A program made the translations under genes and the position numbers. This document shows positions 2 to 26,870 of a stretch of 41,224 nucleotides of DNA, piece after piece. The stretch covers positions 1-41,224 of the forward strand of contig MEDY01000278.1 in NCBI GenBank assembly GCA_001724265.1, read 5' to 3'. Within the stretch, counting starts at the first letter, position 1; each line of letters starts with the position of its first letter. Under the pieces are notes generated by a model, which was not told the DNA's origin, made no database searches, and worked only from the letters and a program-made list of their open reading frames with translations. The stretch is from Rhizaria sp. SCN 62-66 (lineage: Eukaryota).

Positions 2-796
2 GAGACGGTCGATGCGCTGGTCGCACGCCGCATCGCCGACCTCACGGCCTATCAGAATGCGCGCTATGCCGGCGACTACGCGGCCTTCGTCACGCGGGTC
101 CGCGCCGCCGAGCAGGCCGCGCTGCCGGGCGAGGAGCGCCTGACGCGCGCCGTCGCGACGCAACTGCATCGCCTGATGGCCTACAAGGACGAGTACGAGG
201 TCGCCCGCCTGCACAGCCTGCCGGAATGGAAGGATGCGCTCGCGCATGGCTTCACCGGCACGCAGCGCATCGAGATGCATCTGGCCCCGCCGGTGATGGC
301 GAAGCCCGACCCTGTCACCGGCGTGCCCGCCAACGCCGACTCGAGCGCCGGCCGCGGCAACGTCATGGACGCCATTCGCCAGGGCATCAAGCTGCGCAAG
401 GTCGCCAACGACGGCGGCAGCGGCGGCGCCGGGGCCGGCAACGGGCCCGCGGGCGCGCGCAAGGGGCCCGGCCCTGCGCCCGCGTCCTCGGGCAGCGGCG
501 GCGGCGGCGGCGGAAAGGATATGCACTCGATGCTCATGGAGGGCCTGCGCAAGCGCGCGGCGCTCATCGCGGGCCGCGATACGGACGACAAGAAGCCCGC
601 GCCCGGCCTGCCCGCGCCCAAGAGCGCAGCTGGCGATGACGGGGGCATGGCGGCCAATCTCGACGCAGGGTTGCGCGAGCGGCTCGCTGCGGTGACCGCC
701 AGCAAGGGCAAGCCGGCCGCCGCGGCCGCGCGCAGGCCCGCCGCCGGCGACGACGACGACGGCGGCGACGACGACGGCGATGACGACTGGGAGTGA
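2..796 (+). CDS. 5'-partial composite ORF: bacterial indolepyruvate:ferredoxin oxidoreductase C-terminal-like segment (~2-331) fused in frame to a WASH/WASP-type VCA C-terminus (~332-796)
   Basis: Frame +2 is open from nt 2. ETVDALVARRIADLTAYQNARYA...RLMAYKDEYEVARLH...MHLAPPVMAKPDPVTGVP is the hallmark of fused bacterial IOR proteins. It is followed by a WH2 motif (GRGNVMDAIRQGIKLRKV, 350-403), a WASH-like central helix (DMHSMLMEGLRKRAALIAG) and an acidic Trp tail (DDDGDDDWE), ending at TGA. Confidence 0.75.
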   Translation, partial: ETVDALVARRIADLTAYQNARYAGDYAAFVTRVRAAEQAALPGEERLTRAVATQLHRLMAYKDEYEVARLHSLPEWKDALAHGFTGTQRIEMHLAPPVMAKPDPVTGVPANADSSAGRGNVMDAIRQGIKLRKVANDGGSGGAGAGNGPAGARKGPGPAPASSGSGGGGGGKDMHSMLMEGLRKRAALIAGRDTDDKKPAPGLPAPKSAAGDDGGMAANLDAGLRERLAAVTASKGKPAAAAARRPAAGDDDDGGDDDGDDDWE

Positions 797-1328: not shown

Positions 1329-3538
1329 TTACGCCTCGGTCTTGGTCTTCGACCTAGTTTCCGTTTCAGCCTTAGCCTCTGCCTCAGCCTTGCGCCGGAG
1401 CTCCACCTCCTTGGCGCGGTCCTTGTTGGCCCTCTTGCGCTTGGCGTCGGCCTCGCCGGGCCCCACGGCGGCGGCGAACGCATGCCACACGTGGGAGGTC
1501 CTGGTCGCGGCGACGGGCACGGGCGCGAACGGCGCCGCCGCGACCGCGGGCGGCAGCAGGGGCGACGTCAGCGGCAGGTACCAGTGCTCGGGAACGCCCG
1601 CGGCCGTGCGTGCGATGCTGTTGAACGGCGGGAACATGCCGTCGGGGAAGTGTGGAGACACCTGTGCGCAGAAAGCAAGAGTAGCAACAAGAACAGGAGT
1701 ACGAGACATGTGAGTGTTAACGAAGTTGTCATTTGCATATTCAAGAATAAAATAAGTATCAGTTATATTCTAATGCTCTTCGGTGAAATTAACGTGTTTC
1801 TGAAAGATTTGCGCGATATCCGTACCAGTTCGCGCCAATGCTCGCCGAGGCGCCGCATGTAGGGCGAGTCGGCGCCGACGGGCACGGCGGGCAGCGAGTC
1901 CGCCCAGGCCGCGAACGCGCGGCCCGCGCCCGCCTCAGCAGATTTCTCGCCGATACCGGGGGCCACGGAGCGCGGGGCCGCGCCGCGTATGTCGCCCGCC
2001 ACGCCCCGCGCCAGCGCAGAGAGGTCCAGAGTCGTCGCGGGGCCGTGGTCTTGAGCGGAAGTACTCTCGGTCGCAGTCGACGACGGCCCAGTCCCAGTCC
2101 CAGTCCCAGTCGCGTTCTCCGACGCCGACGCCGACGCCGAGGGGAGCGGGACCGCGCCCGTGACGTGCGCAACGATCGCGAGCCAGCGCAACCCCAGTGC
2201 GACGTGGCGCTCCTCCTCTTTCCCGATGGCGTCGACGAGCGCGGCCGAGGGCGCGTCCCCCAGCGAGCCCAGCTTGTCCATGAACCGCGGCGTTGCGTCG
2301 AGACCGCGCGCTTCCTGGCTGAGCGGGATTACGGCCAGCCGCGCGAGCAAGGACGCGCGGGTGGCCACGCCCAGCTGCCACAGCGCCGCCACGCCCGGGA
2401 TGCAGCCGTAGCGGTAGTCCACTGGCATAACAACATCAGCAGCAGCAGCAGAGTCAGCGGTCGAGGTCGCGGCAGCAGAGTCAGCTTCAGATTGCTACTT
2501 TGCCTGCTTCTGCGCCTGCTTCTGCAGCTGCGCCTGCTACTGCTGCTGCGCCTGCGCGGTGAGCAGCTCCAGCCGGTCCGCGACCATCGCGAAGTGGCGC
2601 GCCTCGTCGTCGACGATCGACAGCACATCGTCCGCGAACGCTTCATACAGCGGTAGCGTCACGGGCGCCTGCGCCGGCCGCGGCTGCGGGGGCGAGAACG
2701 ATTGCGGGTGCGGCGTGTCGGCGGTGAGCGGGGCCGTATAGTCAACCACGGGGTTGTACATCGGCCGCAGCACAGTCACCATGATCTCGCTGTCCTGAGT
2801 GAGGGGGAACTCACGGGCACGCGTTCTCTGCTTCTGCTTCTCACAGTCATTGGTAACGGCAGCTGCACGGCGCAGCGCGGCCTTCTCATCGCCGCTGGGC
2901 GGCACGGCGGCAAAGCGTGCCACGGTATCGAGATAGATGTCCACGGCGTTGAGCTCGATGTGCGCAAGGGCGTGCAGGATGTAGATGTTGGTCGGGATCG
3001 AGAGCGCGCGCGCGGAGGGCACGTTAGTGGAGAGCCACTGCGGCCGCGGGGGCCGGGACGGAAGCACCCAGGGGACGGACGCCTGACTGGGATCATCGCT
3101 GGTCGAACTTGCACAAGATTCGCAAGTGTTTGTAGGGCTCGCGTCACCGTCACCGTCAGTCATAGCTGCAGCTGCAGTTGCTGCAGGTGGCTTCAACTGG
3201 TCAGTCTGCAGTTTGCGCACGATGTCGGCGTCAAGCGCCGCGTCGTAGAGCGGGATGCGGCGCTCGCGCCAGAGCGCGGCCGTTTCGCGGGCCAGCGCGA
3301 GCTTCTGCGGCAGGCTCGGCGTGCCGTACACGGCCGCGATGCAGCGGCGCACCACCGACGAGCCCGCAGAGACGGGGATCGCCGCAGTGGGGAACACAAA
3401 CGCAGGCGCGGCGGCAGCTGTGGGGGCGACAGTGGATGCCGCGGCAGAAGCTGTGGCTGCGGCGGCTGCTGTGGCGGAGAAGCAGCGGCGCAGACGCAGG
3501 GCCGGGGAGAGGCCGCGCGGGAAGCGCGGGGGAAACAT
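1329..3538 (-). CDS. DUF455 ferritin-like (diiron) domain protein with probable mitochondrial presequence; 2 exons (3538-1826, 1661-1329); two in-frame TAG codons
   Basis: DUF455 motifs occur in order: LHALAHIELNAVD, DEARHF..RL, YG....LW, LLARLAVIPLSQEARGLDATP, EEERHVALGLRW, then PPFNSIARTAAG..WY after the intron. Track ORFs 2537-3577, 1763-2428 and 1329-1709 join through TAGs at 2537-2539 and 2495-2497 and a phase-0 intron. Arg-rich, acid-free N-terminus (MFPPRFPRGLSPALRLRRCFS). About 681 codons, ends TAA. Confidence 0.85.
1662..1825 (-). other. Spliceosomal intron in DUF455 gene (164 nt, phase 0)
   Basis: GTACGG...ctttctgcgcacAG, AT-rich; removal joins HWREL to VSPHFPDGMFPPFN. Confidence 0.85.
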
Positions 3539-3990
3539 GGCGTTGTTGCGACACTGCAGCAACTCGACTGCGGGCACAAGTAGCGTTTAGAAGACAATCG
3601 TAGACGTGGCACAAGCTGCTGCGTTTTGTCGCACGAGAACAAAGCGGGACTCTAAACCTCAACGAAATTTCGGCGTGCTGCTCGGTCTTGAGAGGGCTGT
3701 TCTGTAATGTAAAAATATCGATGAGGATCTGACTACAAACAATATAATTATGAAATAATACTCGCAAAACTATTTCTACATTCATACTACTATATATTCG
3801 TGCAACAACGACGCAGTACTGAGTTTTACCCTCAACTAAACTCACGCCACTTTCAACTCCAATCAAGCCCAGTCCTCTCACTTCCATCTGAGTGTCACTG
3901 CGTACACTCCCTTCGACTCTCCCGCAGCTCTAGCACCCTCCGAGGTACATCTCCTGGTCAGTTCTACCCTATCCCCGCCCCGCATTGACG

Positions 3991-4920
3991 ATGGCCCTCC
4001 GCTTCGACTGGGGCCAGCTGAGCCAGCCCGCGTTGTCGCGTGTCGTGCTTGATACCATTAACGGCTTCCTCGCCAAGCAGCGCACGCCCATGCAGGGCGG
4101 CTTTGCCTACCTCGAAGTGCTCGACTTCGGCTCCATTGCGCCCACCATTTCGCTTGCCTCGCTGTCGCATCTGGCCGACGACGCCTCCGAGGCGCGCGTG
4201 CGGCTGCACTTCAGCTACTACGGCAAGGCCAACGTCAAGATCCACGCCTACGCGCAGATCAACACGGTGCGCTCGCGCCTGGGCAAGGCCGGCGACCGTG
4301 GGCGCTTTCACATGCGCTCGCTCGACTCATTTGCGCCCGCGTTCTTGCCCGTGTGGGTCGAGCTCTGCCACGTGCACGTCGACACCGACATCATCCTGTC
4401 GCTGTCCTCGGCGCCGCGCGCGCTGCGCGTGCACCTCACCACGTTCCCGCTTAAGGACGTCCTGGTCAAGACCTGCTTCGACGGCTCCGTGATCGCGCAG
4501 AAGATTGCGGAGACGGCCAACAAGGCGATCGAGGACGCGCGGACTGCGCTGGCGGCGCAGGGCCACGACTTCGATATCCCGCTCGAGCAAATCACCACAA
4601 ACACAAACACACACACAAACAGCGCTGAGACTGACGGTAGTGTCGCTGCCGCTAGTGGCAGCAGCAACGCCAAGAGTAGCGCCAACGGCAGCGGCAGCGA
4701 TGGCAGCGCGAGCGATAATCGCAGCGCTGGGAGCAGCAGCGTGCATAGCGCGAACTCAAGCTTTGGCAATATTAACTCCGATTCTGGCGCTGGCGCTGGC
4801 GCTGGCGCTGCTGCTGCTGCTGCTGCTGTGGGTGCGGGCGCGAGTGTTGGTGGCAGCGGCGGCAACAAGGCTGGCGATCATGCCGTCACGGATGGTGTTG
4901 CGATTGACGCTGAAGGCTGA
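3991..4920 (+). CDS. SMP-domain lipid-transfer protein, ERMES subunit Mdm34-like (Mdm12 not excluded)
   Basis: MALRFDW start, LDFGSIAPTI, FSYYGKANVKIHAYAQIN and FPLKDVLVKTCFD resemble the Mdm34 pattern (MSFxFNW / LxFGxxxP / YxGDAxIxLxTxVQAN / DPLESxxVSSTFD). Low-complexity Ser/Ala tail, ends TGA. First ATG is at 3991. Confidence 0.65.
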   Translation: MALRFDWGQLSQPALSRVVLDTINGFLAKQRTPMQGGFAYLEVLDFGSIAPTISLASLSHLADDASEARVRLHFSYYGKANVKIHAYAQINTVRSRLGKAGDRGRFHMRSLDSFAPAFLPVWVELCHVHVDTDIILSLSSAPRALRVHLTTFPLKDVLVKTCFDGSVIAQKIAETANKAIEDARTALAAQGHDFDIPLEQITTNTNTHTNSAETDGSVAAASGSSNAKSSANGSGSDGSASDNRSAGSSSVHSANSSFGNINSDSGAGAGAGAAAAAAAVGAGASVGGSGGNKAGDHAVTDGVAIDAEG

Positions 4921-5570
4921 TGCGAGCGCCATGAGTAACTGCGGCAACGCACCATCTCAAACGACATGGCTCAAAAGTTCACCGACAGTGACGACTTGTT
5001 TTGGGATTTAATCAGTGGCTAATTAATTGAATTTCACTGTTCAGACGCGAGTTACAGATAGTTACATAGTAGTTTCAAACCCGAGCGTTGTTGAAGAGCA
5101 ACAACAATAAAGGTCATATTTGATAACAACACAATGTGAGACTGACTACATTTGTGTTTTGATGAAAGGAGAATCTACTATGTATTGTTGAATTAATTGT
5201 GGAATTTATCCACAAGCGACACGTAGTAACCCGTTAAGTAACTAGAAAATTACATTGTAAGCACTGTAGGCGAGTACACACTTACTTTAGTTTAAATGAC
5301 TCTGACTGTGACACTGAATGTAATGTAGTCGTACCGCATTCAAGAATGGATGAGAGTGTACCACTCCACTGAATGTGTCATTGAGCTTGCTAATTGCAGC
5401 TAAGACTGCATTTGAGACGTGCAGCTACGACTGCGGTCGCGACAGCCGCTGCAACTGCTAAGTTGCTGTTGCTGACGAGCGTGTGCGTTAGCTGTCACTG
5501 AGAATGCAGACAGGATGAGGACGAGCATTCCACAGGCTATTCATTGCCGGGAGCGTCATCTTGCTGTGCA

Positions 5571-5576
5571 TGTGTG

Positions 5577-5607
<31 letters not shown>

Positions 5608-5616
5608 GTGTGTGTG
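5571..5616. repeat. Imperfect (TG)n/(CA)n microsatellite
   Basis: About 23 TG units with two interruptions, in a convergent intergenic region. Confidence 0.95.
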
Positions 5617-6338
5617 AGGGTAGTCATGTCGGTCGGTGGTTTGGGACGGAGGGGGCGTGGGGTTTAATGCCGTAGTTAAGACAAAAAAAATCACAGAAAC
5701 AAGTCACGGAGACAAATCACAAAGAAGAGCAAAAAAAAAAAGAAGAAAATAAACAAAAGAAAGGACCAGCCATTCAAGGATCAACCAAAGAAACAACCAT
5801 GAGAGAGAAACATATATTTTAGATAGCAAGCAAACGAACGACCTATGGAAGACAAGAGACAAGTTGAGTCAAGAGCAGAAAAGAAAAGAAAATAGCATAG
5901 CAGACAAGGAGCGCAGAAACGATGATTGTTGAAAATAGCAAGCACGAGAGAAAAGAAAGAGAATGAATGGTGGCATGTTACTTTGTCATTGCGCAGGCTG
6001 AAAAGGGTGCTGAGGGGTTGATTTGTCGTTGTTGATATCATAGTTGTTGATTTTTTGTTGTTGAGAAAACATAGAAGACTGGTAAAGAAGCAAAAGCAAT
6101 CGATTGGATGAAAAAATCAGAATAAAGCATTCATGAAAACAAAAAATACACACACGAACAAAAGAGACAAAAAAATGATTGATGACTGCCACAAATATAG
6201 CGATATGACAAAAAAACAGCAACACATAGAAATTATATCGTCATATAATATTAAGTATTAAGACTAATGTCGCATCTATCATTTGAATTACTACATCTAA
6301 GTTTCTACACACGCCAAGCCGTCAAGTGCTGTCAACTC

Positions 6339-9300
6339 TTAGTTGTTCTCTTCGTTGGCCTCGATGAAGGCGCGCATGGGCGTAAAGAAGTCCGTCGAGT
6401 GCGACATGCGCCTCAGCGAGATGGGGTTGAGCACCTCCTGCAGCTTGGGCACGGCAAGCATCTCGTCCGCGCCGGCGCCGCCCTCCGCGGCCGCGGTGTT
6501 GCCGCCCGTGGAGCCGCGGCGGCCGGCGTAGAGCAGCGTCGCGGCGGGCGTCGACCGCGGCGATGGGGCCGCGCGCGGGGACGCATGGTCGCGGTCGCGC
6601 GAGGGCGACTGCGAGCCCCTGCCGTTGCCGTTGGTGTAGTATACCTCGCGGCCCGGCGACGAGGGCGCGTCGCGCGCGTCCGCCAGGCCGACTGCGGAGA
6701 GGTTGTGGGCGTGGTTTCCACTGCCACTGGCGCTGTTGCTGCCGATGCTGCCCGCGCGGCGGTGCGGCGTCATGGGCGACGAGGGCGCGCGGATCAGCGA
6801 GGCAGGGACCTTATCTTCGTGCTCACCGGGCGCCGCGTCGCCGTGGTCTTCGTCCGCCGCCGCCGCGTGACCGTGAGCGTGGTCGCCCGCGGTGTGCGCG
6901 TTGAGCCCGTCTCTTCCGCTGCTGCTGCTGCTGTGCGCGGTAGTGCTGGGGTTGACGTTGGGCACGGGCAGCCCGGCGAGCGCGTCGTCCTCCGGCGGCG
7001 GCGAGTCCGACTGCGAGAGCTGCGCGCGTCGCGGCGACAGCACGGCGTCCTTGCCGTTGCTGCTGCGGCTGCCGCGGCCGCTCCCGCCGCCGTTGGCGCT
7101 CAGGTCGACGGCGAGCATCCCGGACTGGGGCCGGCCGGGGACGGGCGACGCCGAGCTGTTGCTGTTGTTGCTGTTGCGGGAGCGCCTCGCCAAGTTGTTG
7201 ACCAGGTCGGGATCGACGTGCGTGGTGAGCGCGGGAGACAGCGACAGCGACGGGATCCCGCCCGGCCGCGGCGACTGCGACTGCGCCTGCGCATGGGCCA
7301 CGGGCGCGGCGAGCACAGGCCGCGGCGACTGGGACACTGCGTTGGGGTTACTCGGGTTGGAGTTAGTGCTGTTGCTGTCGCGGCGGATGCGGAAGGCGCC
7401 CGAGGTGCGCGCGCCGGGCGACGCAGGCACCAGCGCGGGCCACGCCCCACCCGCGCCCGCGCCCGCGCCTGCACCGGCACCGGTACTGGCACCGGCACTC
7501 TGGGCATTAGACTCGGCGGCCGCGGTGATGTTGCCGACGGGCATGGCCGGAGTGAGGATCGAGGGCCGCGAAATGAAGTCGACGGCGATGGATGAGCGGC
7601 GAAACGCGTGCAGATTGCCCGCGCCCGCGCCGGGGCCGCCGACGACGGGCAGCACGGGCATATCGTTCGCGGCACTAGCGGTAACGGCGCTCGCGGCGGC
7701 TCCTCTAGCGCTGTTGTTGGGCGAGGCGGCGACGGCGGCGCTCATGTTGCTCGCGCTGAAAGGATTACTCTGCGCGCTCGCGCTCGTGGCACTCGCGGGC
7801 GTCCCAGTGTTGACTGCGGTTGCGAGGGCGAGGTCTGTGCCGGGCGGCAAGAAGAGCCCCCCGGTCTGGGTCTGGCGCTTGAGCAGACGGCCGCGCTTCG
7901 GCTGCTGCGGGTCCTCACCCGCTGCCACGGCCACGGCGCTGCCGCCCTCGCCGCCCTCGCCCCCCGCGGCAGCGAGTGCGGCGGCGGCGGCGGCGGCGGC
8001 GGAGCCCGCGGCGAGCGCGGCGGAGAAGGCGGCCGGGTTAGAGGCGTTGAGCTCGGCCACCGTGTGCCTGCGGCCCGCGCGCATGCCGCCCAGCGAGCCC
8101 GTCGAGGGGCCCGCAGCAGAACCAGCAGCAGCGCCAGAGCCGGAGCCGGGGAGAGCGCCGCTGTTGGCGTTGGAGGGCGAGGCAACGACGACTGCACCGT
8201 CAATCAGGTCCAGGTCAGCGCGGCCGAGCCCGCCGGCGTAGGTCACGGGGATCGAGCCCGCGCTGCCGCCGCCCAGCCCCGCGCCGGCGCCACCGCCGTT
8301 TGCCCCGGCCGCGGCGCGCGCGGACCGCGCCAGCAGCCCGCGGTAGCCGCCAGCGGCACCCGCGCCGGCGCCTGCGGGGGCGGCCAGCAGCGCGTGGTGG
8401 TGGCGCCGCGCCAGCAGCACCGAGTCGGCGTCCATGCCCGCGCCCGCGCCCGCGCCCAGGGCCAGCGCGGCGTTGGCGGCGGCGGCGGCGGACAGCGCGG
8501 CGACCGAGACGCCGCCTGCGGCCGCGCCGCCGGCGCCCGCAGCGGCGGCGTCGAGGCCGAGCCCGTCAGAGGCGGTAATGTGCATGTCGCGGATGCTGCG
8601 CTCCAGCGCCGCCAGCGAGGCGTCTTCGTCGTTGTCCACGTGGGCGTCGAGCGTCAGCAGGTTGATCTGCATGCGTTGCGCCGCCGCGACCTCGGCCTCG
8701 GCCGCGGCAATCGCCGCTGCAGCACTGGCGCTGGCGCTGGCGCCGGCGTCGCTGCGGAGGGCGTCGAGGCGGGCCTGCGCGGCGGCCTCGCGCGCGCGGA
8801 GGCGGGCGTGGTCGCGCGAGGACGCAGCGCGCCTGGCCCGCGCGCGCTGCGCGAACATCGTCTGCAAGGTCCGGATCTCGCTCTCAACTGCAGCAGCCGC
8901 GGGGGAAGTCAGGTTGGCAGCCAGCGCGCGGTCCAGGTCGGCGTTGTTGTCCAGCAGCAGGCGGTCGACGGCCGCCGCGGTGACACCCGCGTCTTCCGCC
9001 AGCGCCGTCGCAGCCGCGGTCGCAGCGGTCGCGGTCGCAGTGGCTGCGGAGGCGGCGTTGGCGGAGGAGGACGCAGAGTGGGGAACGGAGGTGGTTGCGT
9101 GGCTGGTGGTCGGGGAGGCCGTGGGCGTGGCCGCCGTCACCGTGACGCGCAGCGCGCCGGGACGCGTGGAGGCCGCCGGCGAGTGCGCGCGCTGCTGCGA
9201 CGACGACGAGGAGGACTCTGCGGTGGTCGAAGAAGGCTTTGTGGAGCGGATAGACGCGCCGGAGACCGTCGCGTTGCCTAAAATGGGAAAAATACGAAGG

Positions 9301-9456
9301 GAGGGCCAAATCGTGAAGTGAGGGAGTGATAGGAGTCAAGGCGAAATGGGGGGCGAAGGACAGAGCGAGAAAAGTATTACTGGGGCGGAGGAAGTAAGAG
9401 AAAGGCGTACCATCAAAGTCAGGCGCAACGGCGGCCTTGGATGAACCGCAACCCAT
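6339..9456 (-). CDS. Hypothetical intrinsically disordered protein (~994 aa) with N-terminal dual-acylation motif MGCGSS; 2 exons (9456-9411, 9277-6339)
   Basis: ATG 9456 gives MGCGSSKAAVAPDFD. A phase-1 GTACGC...ttttAG intron joins it in frame to the 933-aa ORF 6339-9140. Helical/coiled-coil segment near the N-terminus, ends TAA. Confidence 0.8.
9278..9410 (-). other. Spliceosomal intron (133 nt, phase 1)
   Basis: GTACGC...cccattttAG, pyrimidine-rich; splice recreates a GGC codon and restores frame. Confidence 0.85.
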
Positions 9457-10241
9457 AAGAGGCCTGTGTTGCGGGGCGTAAAAGACCGAAGCTTGTGGTT
9501 CGTGGGAGCAGAACGGAGTGTTTGTGAAGTCCTGGTTGGCTACGGAGGTGACAGGAGAGAAACGAACGTCTTTTGAGTCTTGTGGTCATACAGGAAAAGT
9601 ATTAATAACAGTTATACAAATTCACAGAAAAGTATCATCCGTCAAGAAAGAAACATTCCAAAAAACGATGAGTTGAACCCGCTATAGCCTCTTCTTTGGC
9701 GGGTCAGAGTCGAGTGCTTTGCGACCACCTCCTACACGATTTTTTGCGAACCCAGGCCAGCGAGCAGTCAACTCAGGTGGTGGGGCAATGTTTGAATTGG
9801 GCCATCTTGGAACAGAGTTGTCGCCGCGTATGTTCGTAGGATACGAATATATTTGCTGCTACAGGATAGAAATTTGATGCGCACATACCATGTTTAAATT
9901 TCAATTCTCTTAGATGCTTCTGTAGCTCTCAAATTCAATTTTGCCATGGTCAATTGCTTTGAGCGCGCTTGCCCTCCGCCCAGTTCATTTCATGTTGTGT
10001 CTCGCCAGTGCCTCTCCTTTAACCTCATCATCTCTTAATTTTCTCACTTTACACACTTTACAAATTCTATCTGTTGTTGTTATTATATGTAGCTCGAAGG
10101 TTCTACCCTTCCAGCGCTCTCTTTTCTTGAGCTCACTCAAACAGCTCTCGCATCGCACAGAGCACCGCCTCTGCCGCCCGCTCCCCAGGTCCCCGCGCTT
10201 CCTGCTCGGCTGGGCGAGACGTGCCCGCGTACCGCAGCCGC

Positions 10242-13200
10242 ATGTCTCACGCGCTCACCGGCGCCCCGTACCCGCCGGGCGGCCCCGGCGCCAGCGGCTC
10301 GCAGTTGCCTCACTTGCCCGACCCCAGTCCCAGCTCTTCACTGTCGCCCAACGGTGCACAGCCGCAACAGCCGGCGTCATCCTCTGCGGCGCCCGTGTTT
10401 GGCCCCACGTCGCCGCCGCACCCCTCGTTGTTTGCCGCCCCGATGATGTCGTCCTCGTCCTCGTCCTCGTACCCGGCCGACTCGGTCTATAACTATAACA
10501 ACTCGGGCGCCGCTAACGGCTCTGCTACCAACGTGCCCGGGGCCAGCGCCGCGGCCGTGTCCGCCGCGCCCGGCGAGGACATCCGCTCAATCATCGCCGC
10601 GGCCCGCGCCACGGCCCCCGTCCCTGGAGCCGGAGCGGCTGGGTCGCCGCAGGCGGTGGGCGTCGAGGGCTATCCTCTATCACAACCGCGGTCACAGTAT
10701 CCGCAGTCGCAATACCCGCAGGCGGCGCAGGCCGTGCCGTGGGCGCAGCAGGGCGCGGGGTCGGCCTGGGAGCAGCAGGGCTCGGCGGGCTACAACGACC
10801 CGCGGCTTGTGTTGGGCGCCCCACCGATGAACTCGGCCTCGGTCGCGCTCTCCTCGCCAGTCGAAACGTACGTCAATTCACTAAACAAGAACAAAGCGGG
10901 GATATGTCTTCTTCCAGGAAATATATATTGACAATAACAATATTACAATTTATTAGTGCTTCTGATCAATACGCTCACACATCTTTGTAACGTCTATTTC
11001 TTACTTGAATCACAACTTCAGCCTGCCTGGTGCCACGGTGGCTCTGCGTCCGGGCCCGCAGTCGCCCTTCACGTCCGACCTGGCCACGGGCATTGGCGGC
11101 GCGGGCGGGCTCTCGGCCATGTCTGCGCGCCCCTCTGCGGCGCCGCTGTGCTGCTGCTGCGACTCGGGCGACTGTTGCGATTGTTGCCTCACCAACACCT
11201 TCCTGGCGCCGTGTCTGCGCGCGTGGGTCGACGCCACGACGGGCTCGGGCGCCTCGGCCGCGCGCCATGAGATGCGCCACGGCGTGTTGCTGCCGCTGGA
11301 CGCGGCGACCGCGGGCGCCAACTCGGCCGCGGCCCGCGAGCGCGTGGCGCTCTTCCGCGCGCGCCACGCGCAGGCCGTCGTCACGCGCGCGCTCTCGCCC
11401 TACCGCGCGCTGCTCGCGGCCGCCCGCGCGCGCGGCGCCCCCGCGGCGCTGGCCGCGCCCGCCGCGCCGCCAGTCTCGCTCACGGTCGCCGTGCGCGGCG
11501 CCGACGCGCTGGAGCCGCGCCGCGGGCTGCGCTTCCCGGCCGTGCGCGTGCACGTCGTCGACCTGCGCACGGGCGCGTACCTGGCCCCGTCCGCGCTGTT
11601 CCCGGCCGATTTGGCGAGCTACGGCGCGCAGTTCCAGCAGCAGGAGCAGCAGGACGGCGGGATGCTGCAGCAGCGCGTGCACGTGACCGCGGGCGGCGCC
11701 GCGCTGCCGTGGGTGCCCGCGCAGTGGACTGAAGCCGTCGACCTGCGCACAATGGCCGGGCAAGACTACTCGCGCGGGCGCGGGCGGGCCGGCGCGGCGG
11801 CCACGGCGGCGCGGCTCGCGCAGAGCAGGGGCGGCGAGGCGGCCGGCGATGTTTTCTCTGATATGCTGCGCAAGGGCTCCAACAACTACAACAACGGCGA
11901 CGGCAACGGCGCGGCCGCAAATGATAGCGACAGCGACGACGACTGCGGAGACAACGACGGCGGCGACAGCGACGACGACGGCAACAGCCCCGAGGGCAGC
12001 TTGCTCCGCAGCCGCAAGGGCACCAGCAGCTCCAGCTCCGGCTCCAAGAACGGTGACGGTGCGAACGTGCTGGTGCAGCGCGGGTCCTACGAGCCGCGGT
12101 GGACGGGCACGGGCTCCGTCCTACAGTTCCCCGACCTCTTACTATCGGACCTGCTCACGCCCTCGGCGCTGCTGCTGTTCGAGCTGCTGGACCTGGGCGG
12201 CCCGCTGTCGCCCGCGCTGCTGGCGCATCCTGAGTCAGACCCCGCCGTCTCGCGTCCCGACGCGCGTATCGCCTGGGCCTTTACGGTCCTGCAGAAGGCC
12301 CCCGTGCGCGGCTCGGGCCCCATGGGCTCGGGCACAAGCGCCGACGGCACCGCGCCCGCGGCGGCGTGGCCTGGCGCGAGTATGTTCAACACGGGTCCCG
12401 CGCGCCTGCAGCTGTACCGCTACACGCACGCGCCCGGCGCCTTCGCGGCCGCGCACCGGCCCGCGACGCCGCTGGTCTACTACGAGTGGGTATGGCAGAA
12501 AAATACGGCGCGCGTGCCCTACCCCTCGACGCTCTACACCGTCATCGGCGGACTGCCCCCGCCCGCGCTCGTCCGCGACTTGACGCTGGGTACCGCGCTG
12601 GGCCCCGCCTCGGGCTTCGCGGCCGCGGCCGGCGGCTGGGCCATCCCGCCCGAGGTGGCCAAGCAGCTGCAGCCGCACGACGTGGCCGTGCTGGCCGCGC
12701 TCGCCGCGGGCGCCCGCGCCGACGCCCAGGCGCGCCAGCTCGAGGCGCGCCGCCTCGCGCTGCTGGAGCGGCTGCTGGCCGTGTACTCACGCGCGGTCCA
12801 CGCCACTGGGCTCGCGCGGCCCGGCCGTGGCGGCGCGTCGCCCGCCCTTGTACGGCCGCCGCGGCTCGACGCGCGCCTCACCGAGCTGCTCTGCGGGCCG
12901 CAGGGCTGCTCCGCGCTGGCCTTCTCGCCGTCGGGGCTCATCCTTGCCGGCGCGTGCGGTGAGACGTTCAACTTCTGCATCAAGCTGTGGGAGTACGCGC
13001 CGATGCAGGAGCTGGCGCCGGGCGCCGCGGGCCACGCCGCGGCGCGCGCGCTTGCGCTCGGCGCGCTGGGCCCTCTCGCGCGCTCGTGGCGCCTGCTGCA
13101 GACGCTGCGCGGCCACAACGCGCTTATCCACGACGTGGCGTGGAGCCCCGACGGGCGCGAGCTCGTCTCGGCCTCAGCCGACGGCACCGCGATGGTGTGG

Positions 13201-15867
13201 GCCGTCGACTCGGAGGCGCTCCACGGCGCCTCGCTGCGCGCTGTCGACGAGCTGCGCCGCTCCGGGGGCGGGCTCACCGCCGCCGCGCTCGAGAGCAGCA
13301 GCGCCAGCACTAAGACGACGCCGCTGGTGGTCCCCGCGCCGGACCCGGCGGAGCTGGCGGTGCAGATGGCGGCACGCGCGAAGCTGTCCGCGCGGTCCAC
13401 GCCCGTGCTGGTGCTGCAGCACCTCACGTTCGTGTACGCGGCCAAGTTCTACGCCCCCAAGACGGAGCTGCGCGACGCCTACGGCGCGCCGCTGCCCGCC
13501 GAGCTGGCACCGCCGCCGCTGCTGCTCACGGGCGCCTTTGACGGCCGCGTGCGCGTGTGGTCTCGCGACGGCGCGCTGCTCGCCGTGCTCTCAGACGCCC
13601 CCATGCCCGCCGCCAGCGCGACTGGCGGCGCCAACACTGGCGCGCTGTCTGCGCGGGGCTCGCTGCACGCGGCGTCGGTGTCGGCCGAGGCGGAGCTCAT
13701 GCGCCAGGGCCTGCGCCCGGGCTCGGGCCGCGTGACCAACACGGCGGCCGCGGCGTCGCTGTCGTACACGGCCGCGCTCTCGGCCGCGTCACGCGCCGTG
13801 CTGTCGCCCGAGGTGTCGCAGGGCATGTACCTCTCCACGGTCGCCGACTCGGTCGACCAGGTCGCCGCGCTGCTCGCGCCCTCCTCCGCCGCGCTCGTCC
13901 CGTCCTCCGCGGCCCCCGGTGGCACTGCTCGTGGCGCGACTGGCATGAGTGGTGCAGCGGACGCGGCGCTGTTTGCGCAGTCGCCCGAGTCGCTGCCGCC
14001 CGGCGCGGCGCGCATCAACGCGTTGCTGGTCGCGCCCGGCGGCGGCAAGTTCTACACGGCCGACGCGCTGGGCCGCGTGCGGCTCTGGGAGGACCTGCAC
14101 GCCTTTGCACCCGTGCTGTTGCACACGGCCGACTTTGCGGGCGCGGGCATCTCGCCCGACGCCGTCGCCGCGGCCTCGGTCGTCGGCTCCGCAGTCGCGC
14201 TCGCGCAGGCCCAGGACCTGGACCTGCCCAGTCCCGATCTGGCCGAGGTTGCAGGCACTTTCGGCGGCGGCCACGCCTTCGCGCCGACGACGGCGGGCAG
14301 GCACCTCTTCTCGGGTGGCGCGCGCGTCAACGGACTCACCGCGCTCGAGTGGCGCTCACGCTTCCGCGTCTTCCGCACCATGTCCGCCTCGACCGAGAGC
14401 GCCGGCGGCGGGGTGGGGATCGCACCCGCGGCCGTGTCGTCGCTGGCGCTGGTGCCGCGGCCGCTGCCCGAGGCCGTGCTCGCGCTCTCGCACAGCAACG
14501 CCGTGTACTCGCTGCCGCTCACACAGATCACCGAGCCGCCGCGCGTGCTCGCCAACGCCGCGGGCTTCACCGCGCGTTCACAGCACCTCGCGCTCGCGCT
14601 GTCGCCCTGCGGCAGTACTCTGATCGCCGGCTCGGAGGACGGACGCGCGTACGTGTTTGACATCGCGCCCGAGGCCGCCGACGCGCTCGCGGCAGACCCG
14701 CCGCGCCCGGCCCCACCCGCGGCGCGCTCATCCCCCGGCCGCCTGTCGTACGTCGTCGAGGCGGGCTTCCCGCTGCCGCTGCGCGCCGTGGCCTGGAGCT
14801 CGGCGCTGCATGTGGCGGCTCTCGGCGCGTTCGGCGGCAACTACCCCGTCGTCATCATGGGACCCTCGCGGTCTGCCGCTACGCTCGCCGCCGCTGCCAA
14901 GGAGGACATGCAGCAGCAAAACCAACAACAGCATGGTCCTGTCGCCGGTGCGAGCGGTGCGCTGCCTCCGCTGCGCGGCGACTACGGCTCTGGGCTGACC
15001 CGGTCCGCGGCGCCGGAGCAGAGCGCGGCCAGCTCGACCGCGCTGGTACAGTGGGAGTCGCCCGGGCTGGCGGCCGCGCGCGAGGCCGCCATGGCGCGCG
15101 TCGCGGCCCGCATGCGCGCGCGCTACGGCATCGACCTACACGACACCAGCGCGCCCATTGTGCCCGTCTCCGCGCGCTCCGCACTGCAAGCGCAGGGACA
15201 GGAACAGGGGCTGAGGCAACCGGAGGTGGAGCACGCGTCGCGCGGGCTCGAGCTGCTGCCGCCGCCCGCCACGGCCTCGGTGGCGCCCGCCAAGACGGAC
15301 GGGCCGCTGGGGACGCATATCACACCCCCCAAGCCCGCGCCCGGCGGCGGCCACAGCAGCAGCCTTAGCGCCCGGGGCAGCGGGGGCGCCGCGAACGGCT
15401 TCACGCCGCCGTCGACCAACAGCAACGCGCACTCGGACAACAATAGCGCCGCGAGCGCCAGCGCCAGTGCGAGCGCGGCTGCGGCGACCACCGCGGCGCC
15501 GGGCTCGGCAGGCTCGCGCTCCGGCGCGGGGTCCCGCCTCAACGCCGGCTCAGGCTCCGCCTCGGTCTCGCGCCTCACCGCGGACGGCCCCGGCTCCGGT
15601 GTCGGTGCGACTGGGGCGAGGCCGCTGTCGGGCTCTGGCGCCGGCGCGGGCTCGGCTGGGGCCAGGCCCGGGGCCGGGCTCGACGCCTCGCGGCCGCGCA
15701 CGGCCACGACCCCTGCGCCCGCCTCTACTATGGGCGGGGCGGGGGCCGGGGAGCCGATGACACCGGTGCAGCGTCGGCTGGAACAGGAGATGTCCGAGCA
15801 CAGCGGAGGTTCGCTGCCGGGCACACCCGAGGGTCCGAACGATAACACGGAGCCGGGACTGTTTTAA
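10242..15867 (+). CDS. AHI1: Jouberin/AHI1-like ciliary transition-zone protein (C2-like region + WD40 propeller); 2 exons (10242-10867, 11022-15867)
   Basis: AHI1-type blocks in order: PAVRVHVVDLRTGAYL, LLLFELLD, IAWAF, RLQLY, YPSTLY, GCSALAFSPSGLILAGAC, GHNALIHDVAWSPDGRELVSASADGTAMVW, LQHLTFVYAAKF, LLTGAFDGRVRVW, SPCGSTLIAGSEDG. Phase-2 intron joins the two ORFs; ends TAA; no SH3 seen. Confidence 0.8.
10868..11021 (+). other. Spliceosomal intron in AHI1 gene (154 nt, phase 2)
   Basis: GTACGT...cacaacttcAG, AT-rich; AC+C restores frame between ORFs 10221-10931 and 11005-15867. Confidence 0.85.
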
Positions 15868-16235
15868 CACAAGACTCAGCACAAGGATCGCATTATGACT
15901 ACATATCTCATATGGTATGAGAACAAAAATTATGTTACTTTAGCAAGAAACGAATAATCGTATGTGCACTATTTCGGACGTACGATAAAAGAATACATTT
16001 CTTTAGATTAGCACATTTATTTCATTATCAAGTACATTGTACGTGTACGTACATGGCACACATGTTTGGAGAGATATCATCATTTGTATTACTAAAATTA
16101 CGACTAAGTAAACGACTTTTAAAAAATTATACATGAGGCAGCGGGCGAACTAAACACATTTTCAATCTTGAATAATTGGCCTCACTTCTAACATGACTGA
16201 CAGATAAACAACTGGCTGCGCTACACACTGCACAC

Positions 16236-18817
16236 TCAAAAGTTCCTGTTGCCGCCGCGGCCGTAAAGGTCGTCCTCGCCCTGTCCGCTGAGGTAGCCGC
16301 CGCTCATGCCGTGGTGGTCGTCCTGGACGGAGAAGCCGTCCCGGGCGGCGGCGCGCACGTCCTCGATGTCGCGCGTGGTGCGCTCGGCGCCGTCGAGCCC
16401 CAGATCGAGAATGTTCTTGGCGGCGAAGCGCAGGCCCGACGCGCCCGCGGCGCGCTGGCGGCGCTCGAAGTTGGTCACGGGCCTGGGCGCGCCCTCGTGG
16501 ACGGACTCGGGCCGCGTGAGCGACTTGGAGGCCACGCGGAAGTCGAACCCGCGCGCCGTGTACGTGAGCTGCTCCTGGTCCCACACGGCGCGCGAGCGCA
16601 TCATGGCCTCTTGCTCGGGCGGGATAAAGTGCTTGACGAGCAGCAGCTGGAACTCGAGGTGACGCTTGAGCTCCTGCACGTGATCGTAGAGGTCCTTGCG
16701 CTCGCGCTGCACGTACTGCTGCGCGTCCGCCGACGCCTGCTTCGCGGCGCGGTACTCGTCGCGCAGCTTCTCCAGCTTGCGCTGCAGAATCTGCACAGTC
16801 TCGCTTGCCTTGTTCGAGCGCTGCAACGCCATGTTGTATTCCTCTTCCTTGGCCTTGACCGCAAGCTTCTGCGCCTCCATCGCGCGCTCCTGTGAGTGAA
16901 CCGTGTTTATGAGACAGGAAATAACACAAAAAAGAGAAGTAAGAGTCGAACGGAGATAGAGTGAGGTCAGAGAGAAAACATCAATTTAGATTCTGAGCGT
17001 ATACCAATTGCATTTTTGTGATGGAGTGATAACACAGGAATAAGATATGATATAGTCCGTGACGTACGTGATCCTGGATCTCGGCCATGCGCTTCTCGAG
17101 CGCCTCGCCGTCCCTGCGCGCCTGCTCGGCGGTCTCACGGTCCATCTGCAGCCGCTCCTCGGCCAGCTGCAGCTGTGCCGCGATCTCGCGCTTGGTGCGC
17201 TGCTGCTGCTCCAGCAGGCGCGCGCGCTCGGCCAATTGGTGCTCCGTCGCGGCCGCCTTGGACTGCACCTCCTGCTGCAGCTCGTACAGCTGCCGCGCCT
17301 CCTCCTGGTGCCGCGCGAGCAGCTCCTCGCGCTTCTTGAGCGACTCCTGCTCGACCTGGTCCAGCTCTTCCTTGGCCACGCCCTGCACCTCGACCTTCTC
17401 CGTGATCTTGACGCGCTCGATCACGCCGCCGCCGCCCGCGCCGCCGCCCAGCGAGACGCCGCGCGAGGCGTACTCGCCGTTGCCCGCGGCCATGTCGTCC
17501 GTCGCCTCCAGCGCCGCGCGCAGACGCTTGATCTCGTCCTAACCGCAAGGAAACAATGGTTGAGGTCAAATGTGATTGGTACAGTTGTGAGTAAAATAAA
17601 AGGTTGCAATATAATTTGGGTGTAGTTTGTGTAAATTTCAATACAATAAAGACTCAACACATGTTACGTTGCGTGTTATAAGTATAATCAAATATCATGC
17701 GTGTCACGCGTACTTGGTACTCGCGCAGAAGACCGTCCTTGGGGTCCTCGTTGACGCGCGGCTTGTTTTTGATCAGCTTGGCACGCGACGCAAAGCGCAT
17801 CGTCTCGGTCGTCTCGTCGACGTTGTAGTCCGCGGGGCCAACGTTGGCGATCATCACGGTCTTAGTGTTGCCGCCGAGCGAGTCCATCAAGAGGCGGGTC
17901 AGCTGCGACTCGCGGTAGGGGATATGCGTCGCCGAGCGCGACGTGAGCGCCGAGATGACCTGGCCCAGGGTCATGAGCGACAGGTTGATCAGAATGCCTT
18001 CCTTAAGGCGCTGCCCCGTGGCCTGCGTTTTGGCCTGGCGCTCGGAGCCGGCCAGGTCGACCAGGTTGAGCTTGCCGAGGCGGATGTGCGCCTCGCCGTC
18101 CTCACGCACCATCGACGTCTCCACCGTCAGTGTAAAGATGCAATGCGAGCGCGACGAGCCCGGGTTCATCTTAGTCGCGCCCACCGCGCGGTGCGCCTTG
18201 GACATCGCCAGGTACTTGAGGCAGTCGGCGGAGGACTTGACGACGTGCTTGGCGGCGCCGACGACGACGAAGCCGCCGTCGGGCGAAGCCTTGAGCTGGA
18301 GCTTCGCTCGCTCCTGGCCGCGGACCGTCTCGCGCAGCAGGTCCATGACGTCCTCCTGGTAGATCTCAACGCACTGGCACGACACCAGGAACTGGTTCTG
18401 CGGATTTTTGGCCTGCTCGGTGGCGATGTGGGAGAAGATGTGGTCGAACGTGCGCGGGTTCACGCCGCGGAGCGCGTCGTCCGTGAACACGCCCTCCATG
18501 GTGTGCGTCTTGCCCGTGCCCGTCTGGCCGTACGCGAAGACCGTGCCGTTGTAGCCCTGCAGCACGAAGTCGACGATCTGTGCGACGGCGCGCACGTAGA
18601 CTTCCTCCTGTGTCGAGCTTTGAGAGAAGACGGCGTCGTAGGTGAACTCCTTCGGCTGCCCGTTGGCGTTCGCGCGTGGGTCGCGGATAATAATGCGGTG
18701 CGAGGCCTCGTCAACGGTGACAATGTCGGCGTTGCCGTTGGACTGCTCCTCTGAGTTGAGGGGACGGCAGCGCACGACGACCTGCACGCTCTCGCCCTTT
18801 TCTTTGTCGGATGACAT
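16236..18817 (-). CDS. Kinesin-2 (KIF3/FLA10/FLA8-type IFT motor subunit), ~742 aa; 3 exons (18817-17714, 17538-17068, 16889-16236)
   Basis: Motor motifs VVVRCRP, GYNGTVFAYGQTGTGKT, SSRSH, LVDLAGSER, HIPYRESQLTRLL. The kinesin-2 neck NEDPKDGLLREYQ|DEIKRLR is restored by splicing. Coiled-coil stalk and kinesin-2 tail motif RF..KNILDLGLD..ERTTRD; ends TGA. Confidence 0.92.
16890..17067 (-). other. Spliceosomal intron 2 of kinesin (178 nt, phase 0)
   Basis: GTACGT...ttcactcacAG; joins EIQDH to ERAMEAQ. Confidence 0.85.
17539..17713 (-). other. Spliceosomal intron 1 of kinesin (175 nt, phase 0)
   Basis: GTACGC...ccttgcggttAG; joins LLREYQ to DEIKRL. Confidence 0.9.
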
Positions 18818-19444
18818 CTTGAAAGCGCGAGCTGAGGTAGAGTTATGCAGTAGAACAAGAAAATAACAGAAACAATGTCAGAAATGCATGTTTAAAATTC
18901 ATGTTTGCCTGGTAGCAATGAAGATTGAACGCATCGTGAAGCAGGAGAGTCGGATATTTAGGGTCATCAAGGACGCTAACAAGGCGCGAGGCAAAGTCAA
19001 GCAGGAACCGGACCTGCAAAGCACTAGACAAGAGCAAATAACGCTATAATTTAAAAAATAGATACTAAACTCAACGTTAATACCGACAGCCGAAGATACG
19101 CTTCTTGAAAACGGTCTTATTATGACGTAAATCTCATTGGCGTTTTGCAAAGCAACGGCTCTCTTTTGAACCGCCCATTGGCCAGGCGAGTCGTCACAAA
19201 CTGCGGCCTCTGAACACAGTGATATGTACCGCATCGTAAATTCCGTTGCTTGCTATAATGCACGCACTACCATATACTACAAGCTCTATTTTATTTATTC
19301 TTTCTTTGACGCCGTGTGAGGACTTTGCCACATAGCGATATACCTTCCGTAAATCTCCCCTCTCGCTCACCAAGCAAGGTCTCAACTGCTTACTTTGCTC
19401 TTGGTTATTGCCTCGTCCTGTTTTCATTTCCCTTTTTAGACTCG

Positions 19445-21196
19445 ATGCTCGGTCGCAGCACCTCCGTTGCCTCCCGCCTGGCGCAGCTGGGCCACGCCGC
19501 CCTCGCGCACCCCAAGGCCGCGACCCGCTTCCTGGCCACCGCGCCCGCCCTCACCAAGGCCCTCAACGCCCGCACCTCCGCCGCCACTGTCCGCGTCCCT
19601 GCTGCTGCTGTTGCGCCTGCGATGGCCTCCGCGTCCGCGATGCTGAAGCCCCGCGTGCAGCTATTCCACTCGCTGTCCTCGCGTGCCCACGCCCGCTCCC
19701 CGCTCGCCTCTCTGCTGCGCCCGGCCCCCGTTGCCGCAACTTCCTCCGCTTCCTCGGCCGTCTCGGCCGCGGTCGCGCCCGTCGTCGCGGCTCCCGCGCG
19801 CGCCAAGTCCAGCGGCTGGGGCGCGGGCCTGGAGAAGAACCGCAAGTCCCTGTCTGACATTGAGGTGGCGGCGCTCGAGTCGGACGCGACCGTGGACAAG
19901 ATCGTCATCTACGAGATGCCGCCCACCGTTGTGGACAAGCTTAAGCGGCACATGTACGCCGCCGTGGGCACGGCCGTGCTGTACCCCATCGCCGTCTCGG
20001 TCATGAACTCGTACATCGCGTACCCGTACACGATCGGCGTGTCGCTGGTGGGCGCGCTGCTCTGCTTGCGCCAGATCAGCAACATCTTCGCGCTCCAGAT
20101 GGCCGTTAAAAAGATGACGGTGATCTGGCCCAGCGAGGACGAGCTCGCGCAGGACCGCGCTGAGGACTACGAGGCGCGCGCTGCGCTTAACCTGCGCGAG
20201 ACTGAGTCGCGTAACATGTACATGGTCGAGATGGAGGCGCGCAAGGAGGCCGCGGCGGCGCAGGAGCAGGCGCTACGCGAGGGCAAGTCTGAGGAGGAGG
20301 CCGCCGCCCTGGCGCGCGAGATCGTTGCGCAGAGCACGCCGATGATCGAGGCCGAGAGCGAGGAGATGTCCGCCATGCCCTCGCGGCTCATCATCCACCG
20401 TCTCGGCAACCCGTTCTCGCGCAGCGGCTCCGTCATCGAGGTCGACCCCACCAAGATCAAGACCCGCAAGCTCGGCCCCAACGCACAGGTACGCCAATAG
20501 CAAGTGCGAAGTTCTGGTTTATATGAGCAATTATTGAGGATTATTTGTTGTCTTGTTTAAAAATATCTGTGTTTTCATACGAGATTTATATAGTGTGTCA
20601 ATATCATATCATCTTGCGCTTCATGTTCTCACTTGCCATTTTTGCTTTGTTTCGTTTTGTTTTTGCTCTGTCACTCAGGTCGAGATCCCCCTGGTGCCCG
20701 AGGACGCCGCTGCGGCCATCGCACAGGACCCCCGCTACGCGGCCATGATGCTGTGGGCCGACGACACGATGCCCATCCTCTTCAACGCCGCCCACGTCAA
20801 GCACATCGGTGCCATGAACCAGCTCATTCAGGTACGCTTTTATACCAACAACAAGATATATCTTGCTCATATAATACCTCTTCAAGATGAAACTTAAGAT
20901 TTCTGTTGCAAACGTTGATATCTACCCACACATGAAACGTGCTATTTTTGACTAATACCACCTTTGTCATATCTTGTCATTTTTCATTGTTACGCACGCA
21001 GGCTGCCAACTCCAACGGTGTTGCCGAGGACCTTAAGGTGTCTCCCATTGGCCGCCGCTGGAACTTCGCGGGCCAGGGCGCTAGTGGTGCTCGCCAGGCT
21101 GCGGCTGCGGCCTCTGCCGGCGCCGCTGCCCCCGGCGCTGCCGCTCCCGGCGCCGCGGGCGCTGCCCCTGGCTCCCCCGCTGCTCCCCAGCAGTAA
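19445..21196 (+). CDS. Probable mitochondrial membrane protein with two TM helices (TMEM70/TMEM186/TMEM223-like architecture), ~463 aa; 3 exons (19445-20488, 20679-20831, 21002-21196)
   Basis: Long Arg/Ala/Ser-rich acid-free presequence (MLGRSTSVASRLAQL...), then IVIYEMP..VDKLK, two hydrophobic segments and AVKKMTV. Two phase-0 GTACGC introns join three ORFs; ends TAA. Gene model is solid, family call is tentative. Confidence 0.65.
20489..20678 (+). other. Spliceosomal intron (190 nt, phase 0)
   Basis: GTACGC...T-rich tract...tcactcAG. Confidence 0.85.
20832..21001 (+). other. Spliceosomal intron (170 nt, phase 0)
   Basis: GTACGC...TGACTAAT (branch-like)...gcacgcAG. Confidence 0.85.
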
Positions 21197-21834
21197 ATGC
21201 ACGGATGTTTGCAGTAGGCGTAGTGTTGTCTCGAAAAGTAAGAATCTATTTTATCAATCAAGCTGTTTTATATGCTAATACAAGTTATTTATGTGATTTC
21301 ATGACATTTTATTGTTGTTACTTCTGCCGTATCTCTATAAATGTGGATTGCCACAGCGTGACCGATGGAACACTGGTTGTGGCGCGGGATTGAGGGGTCC
21401 TCATCTCACCGCAAAAGCAACTCCTGATCATGCATGAAACTTCGACAGTTCGCCACACAATAACATTATTGTAACTCAACCGCAGATTTACACTTGCCCT
21501 TTAATTATTATTTCCCGCATCATATTTTCCAGCTCACGACACACACTCTTCTTCTTCCCTTTGCCCGGTCAAGTTGACCGTCGGGAAGACAGACTATCTT
21601 CTGTCTCGCCTGCATCTGCATCTTTATCTGTATCACTGCCTCTTTACCGTAAGGATATTTATTTTGTCACAGACGTGGCCCTTAGCGCCACACTTGTTAC
21701 CCGGAAAGAGAAGGCGACTTCTCCCCTAATTCCATCAGCCCTCTCGGGCTACTGCATTCACAAGCACCGAGCACGCATAGCGATAGCCCTGCGCACTCGA
21801 TCGCGCTCGCGCGCTTACAACACACTTGTCGGTG

Positions 21835-26836: not shown

Positions 26837-26870
<34 letters not shown>

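Follow-up and report, generated by a model that had tools for sequence, protein, structure and literature searches.

Seven introns with a shared GTACG 5' splice site in a GC-rich, intron-poor contig of Rhizaria sp. SCN 62-66

Splice signals of intron-poor lineages

Intron-poor lineages homogenise their splice signals, and a small number of eukaryotes prefer C at the fourth intron position (+4) of the 5' splice site (donor), as described by Roy and Bowser (2022, bioRxiv 10.1101/2022.06.08.495308). Here we describe seven introns in 41,224 nucleotides (nt) of contig MEDY01000278.1 from Rhizaria sp. SCN 62-66 (assembly GCA_001724265.1), a stretch of DNA referred to hereafter as the window. All seven begin with GTACG, they stand at low density and they do not resemble one another in sequence. 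A fixed C at +4 is an already known kind of state, and its most likely explanation in the window, one that we consider probable, is a donor homogenised across the whole lineage of an intron-poor eukaryote.

Three lineages with C at +4 are described in the same text (bioRxiv 10.1101/2022.06.08.495308). Thecamonas trahens prefers C at +4 and the Mamiellales prefer GYGCGY donors, both with a standard U1 small nuclear RNA (snRNA). Mastigamoeba balamuthi prefers GUGCGC donors; a U1 candidate reported for it, ACGUAC, would be perfectly complementary to GUACGU. Since lineages with C at +4 include both standard and changed forms of U1, compensation in U1 may but need not accompany such a donor; it is a documented possibility and not the rule. 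A switch at +4 between A and U has been tied to METTL16 and SNRNP27K (Parker et al. 2023, PMC10581693), and that study records no change in U1 or U6 in the Saccharomycotina species that yielded a candidate (227 for U1 and 230 for U6). The first-pass annotation of the window had drawn on the same background, connecting +4 with U1, the U6 ACAGAGA box and METTL16 and naming SNRNP27K for a check; its account agrees with PMC10581693 (position 5 of U1, the U6 ACAGA box, METTL16 and SNRNP27K), where the switch is between A and U and does not involve C.

The window resembles each of the three lineages in part. Thecamonas trahens, an apusomonad and a free-living flagellate, is likewise intron-reduced and is described with an atypical donor that has C at the fourth intron position; no protein of Thecamonas was among the homologue matches listed. 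M. balamuthi likewise has C at +4 and +6, its genome is GC-rich (60.7%) and its introns average about 137 bp (PMC8136499), but it differs in having G at +3, where the window has A, and 3.4 introns per gene, compared to about 0.7 here; no genes of the endoplasmic reticulum-mitochondria encounter structure (ERMES) are reported for it. The Mamiellales (Micromonas, Ostreococcus) are also GC-rich and intron-poor, with near-invariant +4 C donors and introns that are uniform although unrelated. They differ in having G or Y at +3 rather than A, and the window carries a kinesin-2 gene and a lead for an Mdm34-like protein but no plastid-related gene. Blastocladiella was weighed as a possible affinity of the window and rejected, its introns being mostly 60-79 nt long with a CTAAC branch (PMC2773782), compared to 133-190 nt here. 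GUACGY with A at +3 was not found as the consensus of any lineage in a search of titles and abstract openings within a partial literature collection that had no figures.

The donor consensus of Saccharomyces cerevisiae is GUAUGU, with GUACGU as a tolerated variant that is spliced by the standard U1 and U6, and that of Trichomonas is GTAYGT. Budding yeast shares with the window the syndrome of few introns and a strict donor. However, C at +4 is a minority state in yeast, whereas it is present in 7/7 introns here, and +6 is mostly C here.

Seven introns and their donor

The donor hexamers of introns 1 to 7 are GTACGG, GTACGC, GTACGT, GTACGC, GTACGT, GTACGC and GTACGC. The first five bases are the same in 7/7 introns, +6 is C in four, T in two and G in one, and there is no conservation past +6. 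All seven introns have U2-type termini, starting with GT and ending with YAG; the acceptor is CAG in five and TAG in two. Five of the seven are in phase 0 and in six the downstream exon begins with G. The donor of minor, U12-type introns follows the consensus RTATCCTT; no donor of this kind was present among the seven, each of which reads GTACGN followed by unrelated bases. The first-pass annotation had assigned a GTACG donor to every coding intron of the window and had described the lengths as falling in a tight range of 133-190 nt. Positions, strands and hexamers were as it gave them, the coordinates of all seven introns bear out the range, and no other coding intron was found in the window's ten genes: each of the genes without introns (G1, G3, G8, G9 and G10) is a single open frame with a Met near its start.

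Given mean base frequencies in the introns of A 0.26, C 0.24 and G 0.13, ACG would fall at +3 to +5 with a chance of about 0.008 per intron and about 3e-15 for 7/7. Across the whole window GTACG shows no excess, with 58 matches on both strands compared to 67 ± 10 in shuffled sequence. The signal therefore lies in the location of the motif at every intron start and not in its frequency. If the window is representative, seven of seven with a flat prior gives a 95% lower bound of 0.69 for the share of GTACG donors genome-wide.

Introns are few, with seven in ten genes and 33.8 kb of coding sequence (about 0.7 per gene), and half of the genes (5/10) have none. Long open frames in the window are 62-75% GC and are interrupted by AT-rich islands, seven of which are intragenic. 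The GC content of the introns is 33-50%, compared to a GC content at third codon positions (GC3) of 0.8-0.96 in the flanking exons. Two marks of the homogenised signals of intron-poor eukaryotes are thus found together: a low intron density with 5/10 genes lacking introns, and a near-invariant donor that departs from GTAAGT (GTACG in 7/7, Y at +6 in 6/7).

The introns also contain candidate branch motifs. One of the words CTCAC, CTAAT or CTTAC places an A 41 to 50 nt before the last intron base (-41 to -50) in 7/7 introns. CTCAC itself is the second most widely shared 5-mer, occurring in 6/7 introns compared to 1.2 expected, and none of 2000 shuffles reached six (the motif was chosen post hoc). 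In 5/7 introns its A falls 41-49 nt from the 3' end (15-nt window), and the last 40 nt of the introns are 65-80% pyrimidine. This is suggestive, though not proof, that CTCAC (CUCAC) is the branch site. The view of the first-pass annotation that no branch-point consensus was visible is probably wrong, given CTCAC in 6/7 introns with its A at -41 to -49 in five of them.

Splicing of the seven introns is predicted from the sequence, and collinearity with homologous proteins supports five of the junctions (introns 1, 4, 5, 6 and 7). The kinesin-2 gene (G6, 18817..16236, minus strand) contains two introns. Intron 4 (17713..17539, minus strand; 175 nt, 35% GC, phase 0, GTACGC...TAG) lies between the motor and the neck and has a candidate CTCAC branch at 17587..17591 (minus strand) with its A at -49. 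Intron 5 (17067..16890, minus strand; 178 nt, 38% GC, phase 0, GTACGT...CAG) lies in the coiled coil and has two branch candidates on the minus strand within 16939..16965, CTCAC at 16961-16965 with its A at -72 and CTTAC at 16939-16943 with its A at -50. The spliced product of 742 residues aligns end to end with the homologue P0001 (743 residues); 598 positions are identical, and collinearity is exact at the two junctions. The intron 4 junction, REYQ|DEIK, is identical in the uninterrupted P0001, which is encoded by metagenome locus L001, and is collinear also with the homologues P0003, P0005 and P0007. The intron 5 junction, IQDH|ERAM, is collinear with ILEH|ERLT of P0001.

Introns 6 and 7 both interrupt an orphan gene (G7, 19445..21196, plus strand). 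Intron 6 (20489..20678, plus strand; 190 nt, 34% GC, phase 0, GTACGC...CAG) has a candidate CTCAC branch at 20628..20632 (plus strand) with its A at -47, and its junction is collinear with the homologue P0122 except for a gap of one residue. Intron 7 (20832..21001, plus strand; 170 nt, 35% GC, phase 0, GTACGC...CAG) has CTAAT in place of CTCAC at 20952..20956 (plus strand), with its A at -46, and its junction, NQLIQ|AAN, is identical in P0122. Intron 1 (1825..1662, minus strand; 164 nt, 38% GC, phase 0, GTACGG...CAG) is in a DUF455 ferritin-like gene (G2, 3538..1329, minus strand), whose DUF455 Pfam matches fall in the exons upstream of the intron. Its candidate CTCAC branch is at 1710..1714 (minus strand), with the A at -49, and the junction WREL|VSPHF falls in a gapless alignment to the homologues P0123 and P0124, with few identities upstream.

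The other two introns were placed by coding-like GC3 on both sides, by reading frame and by the lack of a usable Met downstream. Intron 2 (9410..9278, minus strand; 133 nt, 50% GC, phase 1, GTACGC...TAG) follows a first coding exon of 46 nt (MGCGSSKAAVAPDFD; protein start MGCGSS) in gene G4 (9456..6339, minus strand). From its acceptor to the first downstream Met there are 139 codons with a GC3 of 0.85, and its candidate CTCAC branch is at 9318..9322 (minus strand), with the A at -41. Intron 3 (10868..11021, plus strand; 154 nt, 33% GC, phase 2, GTACGT...CAG) is in a WD40 gene (G5, 10242..15867, plus strand) in which the WD40 Pfam match falls in the exon downstream of the intron. The open frame upstream of it, from Met to donor, has a GC3 of 0.84, and the candidate CTCAC branch is at 10974..10978 (plus strand), with the A at -44.

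Contigs from three RNA-labelled runs matched exons exactly; they were short and shallow. One run of undefined kind covers introns and spacers unspliced and so is probably DNA. In the public protein collection the orphan gene is represented only by P0121 (351 residues; 19445-20497, plus strand), a prokaryote-style call that runs three codons into intron 6 and then stops. The public gene models of Rhizaria sp. SCN 62-66 are therefore truncated at introns.

Explanations for the uniform donor

The seven introns would be ordinary major-type (U2-dependent) spliceosomal introns of a GC-rich, intron-poor eukaryote, and their uniform start would stem from a strict 5' splice signal that the organism has homogenised, G|GUACGY. 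This donor presumably acts together with an AT-rich intron body, a CUCAC branch (probable, about 45 nt from the 3' end) and, past the branch, a pyrimidine-rich stretch leading to a YAG acceptor. The introns would be mutually unrelated and held alike by selection on their recognition, in parallel with other lineages that lost most of their introns and then tightened their signals. The GTACG donor would then be expected genome-wide. Recognition would be by U1 and then by U6. C at +4 would be a mismatch if U1 is standard, as in Thecamonas, the Mamiellales and the GUACGU introns of yeast, or a paired base if U1 is changed, as in Mastigamoeba.

Some evidence on the history of the introns comes from a related organism. 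A scan of metagenome DNA gave 39 loci, of which L001 alone was from a near relative (82.6% nucleotide identity). Two others, L002 and L021, simply duplicate parts of the window (100% identical), and the remaining 36 are distant and mostly low-GC kinesins; no further introns of the lineage were obtained from the 39 loci. At the amino acid level the related organism is 87% identical for the kinesin and 59% for the orphan gene, which has only this one homologue, from a metagenome. The best named matches of the kinesin are animal KIF3B proteins (56-57%), and a search with DUF455 gave no taxa of use for placement. P0001 is an uninterrupted frame in L001 (135-2363), which may be genomic DNA or cDNA, and P0001 and P0122 are both reported on one contig of 14,135 nt, apparently as uninterrupted frames. 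From this, introns 4-7 appear to be absent from the related organism. The presence of these four of the seven would thus vary between the two relatives, through recent gain here or loss in the other.

Several observations weigh against a homogenised, lineage-wide donor or against parts of it. The sample is seven introns from one 41-kb window, which leaves room for a regional peculiarity, and the apparent lack of four of them in a relative is also compatible with a recent burst of intron gain. The positional test of CTCAC was borderline, with 24 of 500 local shuffles reaching 5/7 after correction for all 5-mers and positions. Within exons GTACG occurs 18 times in sense, compared to 26.2 ± 4.6 expected (P 0.036), and 20 times in antisense, compared to 26.8 ± 4.9 (P 0.088). 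Selection against cryptic sense-strand donors in exons would predict a strand-specific depletion, which was not found, both strands being mildly low. GTACG persists in exons without specific avoidance on the sense strand and therefore cannot define a donor by itself. No homologue support was found for introns 2 and 3, and no RNA contig crossed any of the seven introns among the 15 of 35 joints listed. The last two points could also mean that the introns are intergenic spacers called in error, or that GTACG recurred by chance. We give that idea almost no credence because five of the seven junctions are collinear with homologous proteins, the chance of ACG in 7/7 is minute and GTACG is not enriched overall. 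GTACG donors might instead be confined to this region of the chromosome, with another consensus elsewhere. In favour of this, everything observed derives from 20 kb of a single contig, and the Mamiellales offer a precedent, one of their chromosomes being atypical and reported to differ greatly in its splicing signals (bioRxiv 10.1101/2022.06.08.495308). The seven introns, however, are in five unrelated genes on both strands, and GC-rich exons with AT-rich spacers run through all 41 kb of the window; a purely regional donor seems improbable to us. We regard it as similarly improbable that the introns have a common origin as copies of a mobile, introner-like element that carried its own GTACG donor, so that uniformity was inherited and not selected. 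The first-pass annotation had raised this idea and proposed an all-against-all comparison. Tight lengths (133-190 nt) and uniform donors would suit such copies, as would the lack of four of the introns in the orthologues of the related organism, which is compatible with recent gain, and the proto-splice-like context of phase 0 in 5/7 and G at the start of 6/7 downstream exons. Introner-like elements, named for Micromonas, Aureococcus and others by Roy and Bowser (bioRxiv 10.1101/2022.06.08.495308), also have uniform lengths and signals and vary in presence between relatives, but they are defined by similarity between copies, which the seven introns do not have. In the comparison of all 21 pairs with shuffles, 20 had z of 2.6 or less and one had z 3.3. 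Searches of the window with each intron by blastn-short returned only the intron itself. There were no target-site duplications: the longest words shared between junctions were 3-5 nt and overlapped the splice consensus. Terminal inverted repeats were absent too, inverted words at the termini reaching 9 nt at most. The comparison thus speaks against the proposal, and the absence of introns in the relative fits loss equally well.

A different kind of alternative would refine the homogenised donor and not replace it. The first-pass annotation had suggested a co-evolved U1 or U6, or an altered modification of U6, as causes of the fixed C. A U1 with G opposite +4, that is with an ACGUAC-type 5' end, would leave GUACG(U) fully paired. 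The U1 candidate of M. balamuthi supplies a model, in that ACGUAC pairs with GUACGU by Watson-Crick rules, and the donors of the window (four GUACGC, two GUACGU and one GUACGG) suit it better than do the GUGCGC donors of Mastigamoeba itself. In GC content and in the size of its introns the window is also similar to M. balamuthi, which has 60.7% GC and a mean intron of 137 bp (PMC8136499), and a fragment of an indolepyruvate ferredoxin oxidoreductase family gene hints at a low-oxygen lifestyle. On the other hand, of the three lineages published with C at +4 two kept a standard U1, ACUUACC was kept in 227 Saccharomycotina species with +4 A/U switches (PMC10581693), and M. balamuthi has 3.4 introns per gene and no ERMES components, compared to 0.7 and an Mdm34-like lead here. 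The C found mostly at +6 would still be a mismatch. No snRNA was found in the window that could decide between the two forms of U1: Rfam gave no match at the gathering threshold, the 16 weak matches at E<=1 included no snRNA, METTL16 and SNRNP27K were not among the Pfam scan matches, and ARAGORN found 0 tRNAs. On balance we hold compensated recognition to be possible but doubtful. A bolder form of it seems to us less likely again. In that form GUACGY would be near-universal by virtue of an ACGUAC-type U1, the organism would be either an independent third case beside Entamoeba and Mastigamoeba or a relative that keeps the donor behind the Mastigamoeba U1, and the four introns missing from the related organism would be recent gains.

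Neighbouring genes, the organism and implications

Sequencing runs from wastewater and activated sludge, and a further metagenome, contain DNA identical to that of the window. The organism, which is uncultured, may be a flagellated eukaryote with a possible tolerance of low oxygen, to judge from the kinesin-2 gene, the Mdm34-like lead and the C-terminal part of a protein of the indolepyruvate ferredoxin oxidoreductase family. The last of these is a fragment at the left end of the window (2-796, plus strand) of a bacterial-type member of the family (DUF6537, E 2e-34; NF009589, E 4e-34). It has a eukaryote-style GC3 of 0.91, is followed by an AT-rich spacer and may be a laterally acquired gene of anaerobic metabolism in a eukaryote. 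Gene G3 (3991-4920, plus strand) encodes 309 residues with no Pfam match and resembles the N-terminal SMP domain of Mdm34, a component of ERMES, with a language-model score of 0.86 (below the bar of 0.9) and a template-modelling (TM) score of 0.51 for the predicted structure; we treat the Mdm34-like assignment as a lead only.

The DUF455 gene that holds intron 1 has two in-frame TAG codons on the minus strand (2539-2537 and 2497-2495), both within a Q/K-rich insertion of about 40 residues relative to the homologues P0123-P0125. The frame stays open past them with a GC3 of 0.82-0.88 and has conserved motifs downstream. An eighth intron that would remove the TAG codons was sought and rejected: no frame-preserving GT-AG candidate spares conserved residues, and the only GC-AG options, of 57 or 63 nt, were unconvincing. 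Gene ends in the window are TAA in five cases and TGA in three, with TAG in none of the eight. The gene might use TAG as a rare sense or read-through codon, be a pseudogene of recent date or contain an unusual intron.

Downstream of the orphan gene, a single open frame of 4799 codons (21787-36186, plus strand) has a GC3 of 0.76 and no in-frame TAG. It has no significant Pfam domain, the sole match being BUD22 at E 0.001, below the cut-off, and is a giant orphan protein. Between two convergent genes is a 1.4-kb AT-rich gap (4921-6338, 38-39% GC), far longer than the other 3' spacers. A single GTACG lies in it, at 5334 on the minus strand, and neither Rfam nor ARAGORN gave an RNA gene there.

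For the genome of Rhizaria sp. SCN 62-66, the GTACG...CTCAC...YAG signature offers a simple rule for mending gene models in its contigs. The window bears on the wider question of what leads lineages with heavy intron loss to tighter, and in some cases altered, splice signals and whether their snRNAs follow; the few lineages known with C at +4 are divided between standard and compensated U1. If the donor were read by an ACGUAC-type U1, it would be part of a co-evolved, fully paired system of U1 and donor, and in the bolder form recently gained introns would have been strict from the outset. With GUACGY invariant at the donor, introns rich in AT within a GC-rich genome and an apparent difference in intron presence from a close relative, Rhizaria sp. 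SCN 62-66 would supply a useful additional data point when its genome, U1 and U6 become available.

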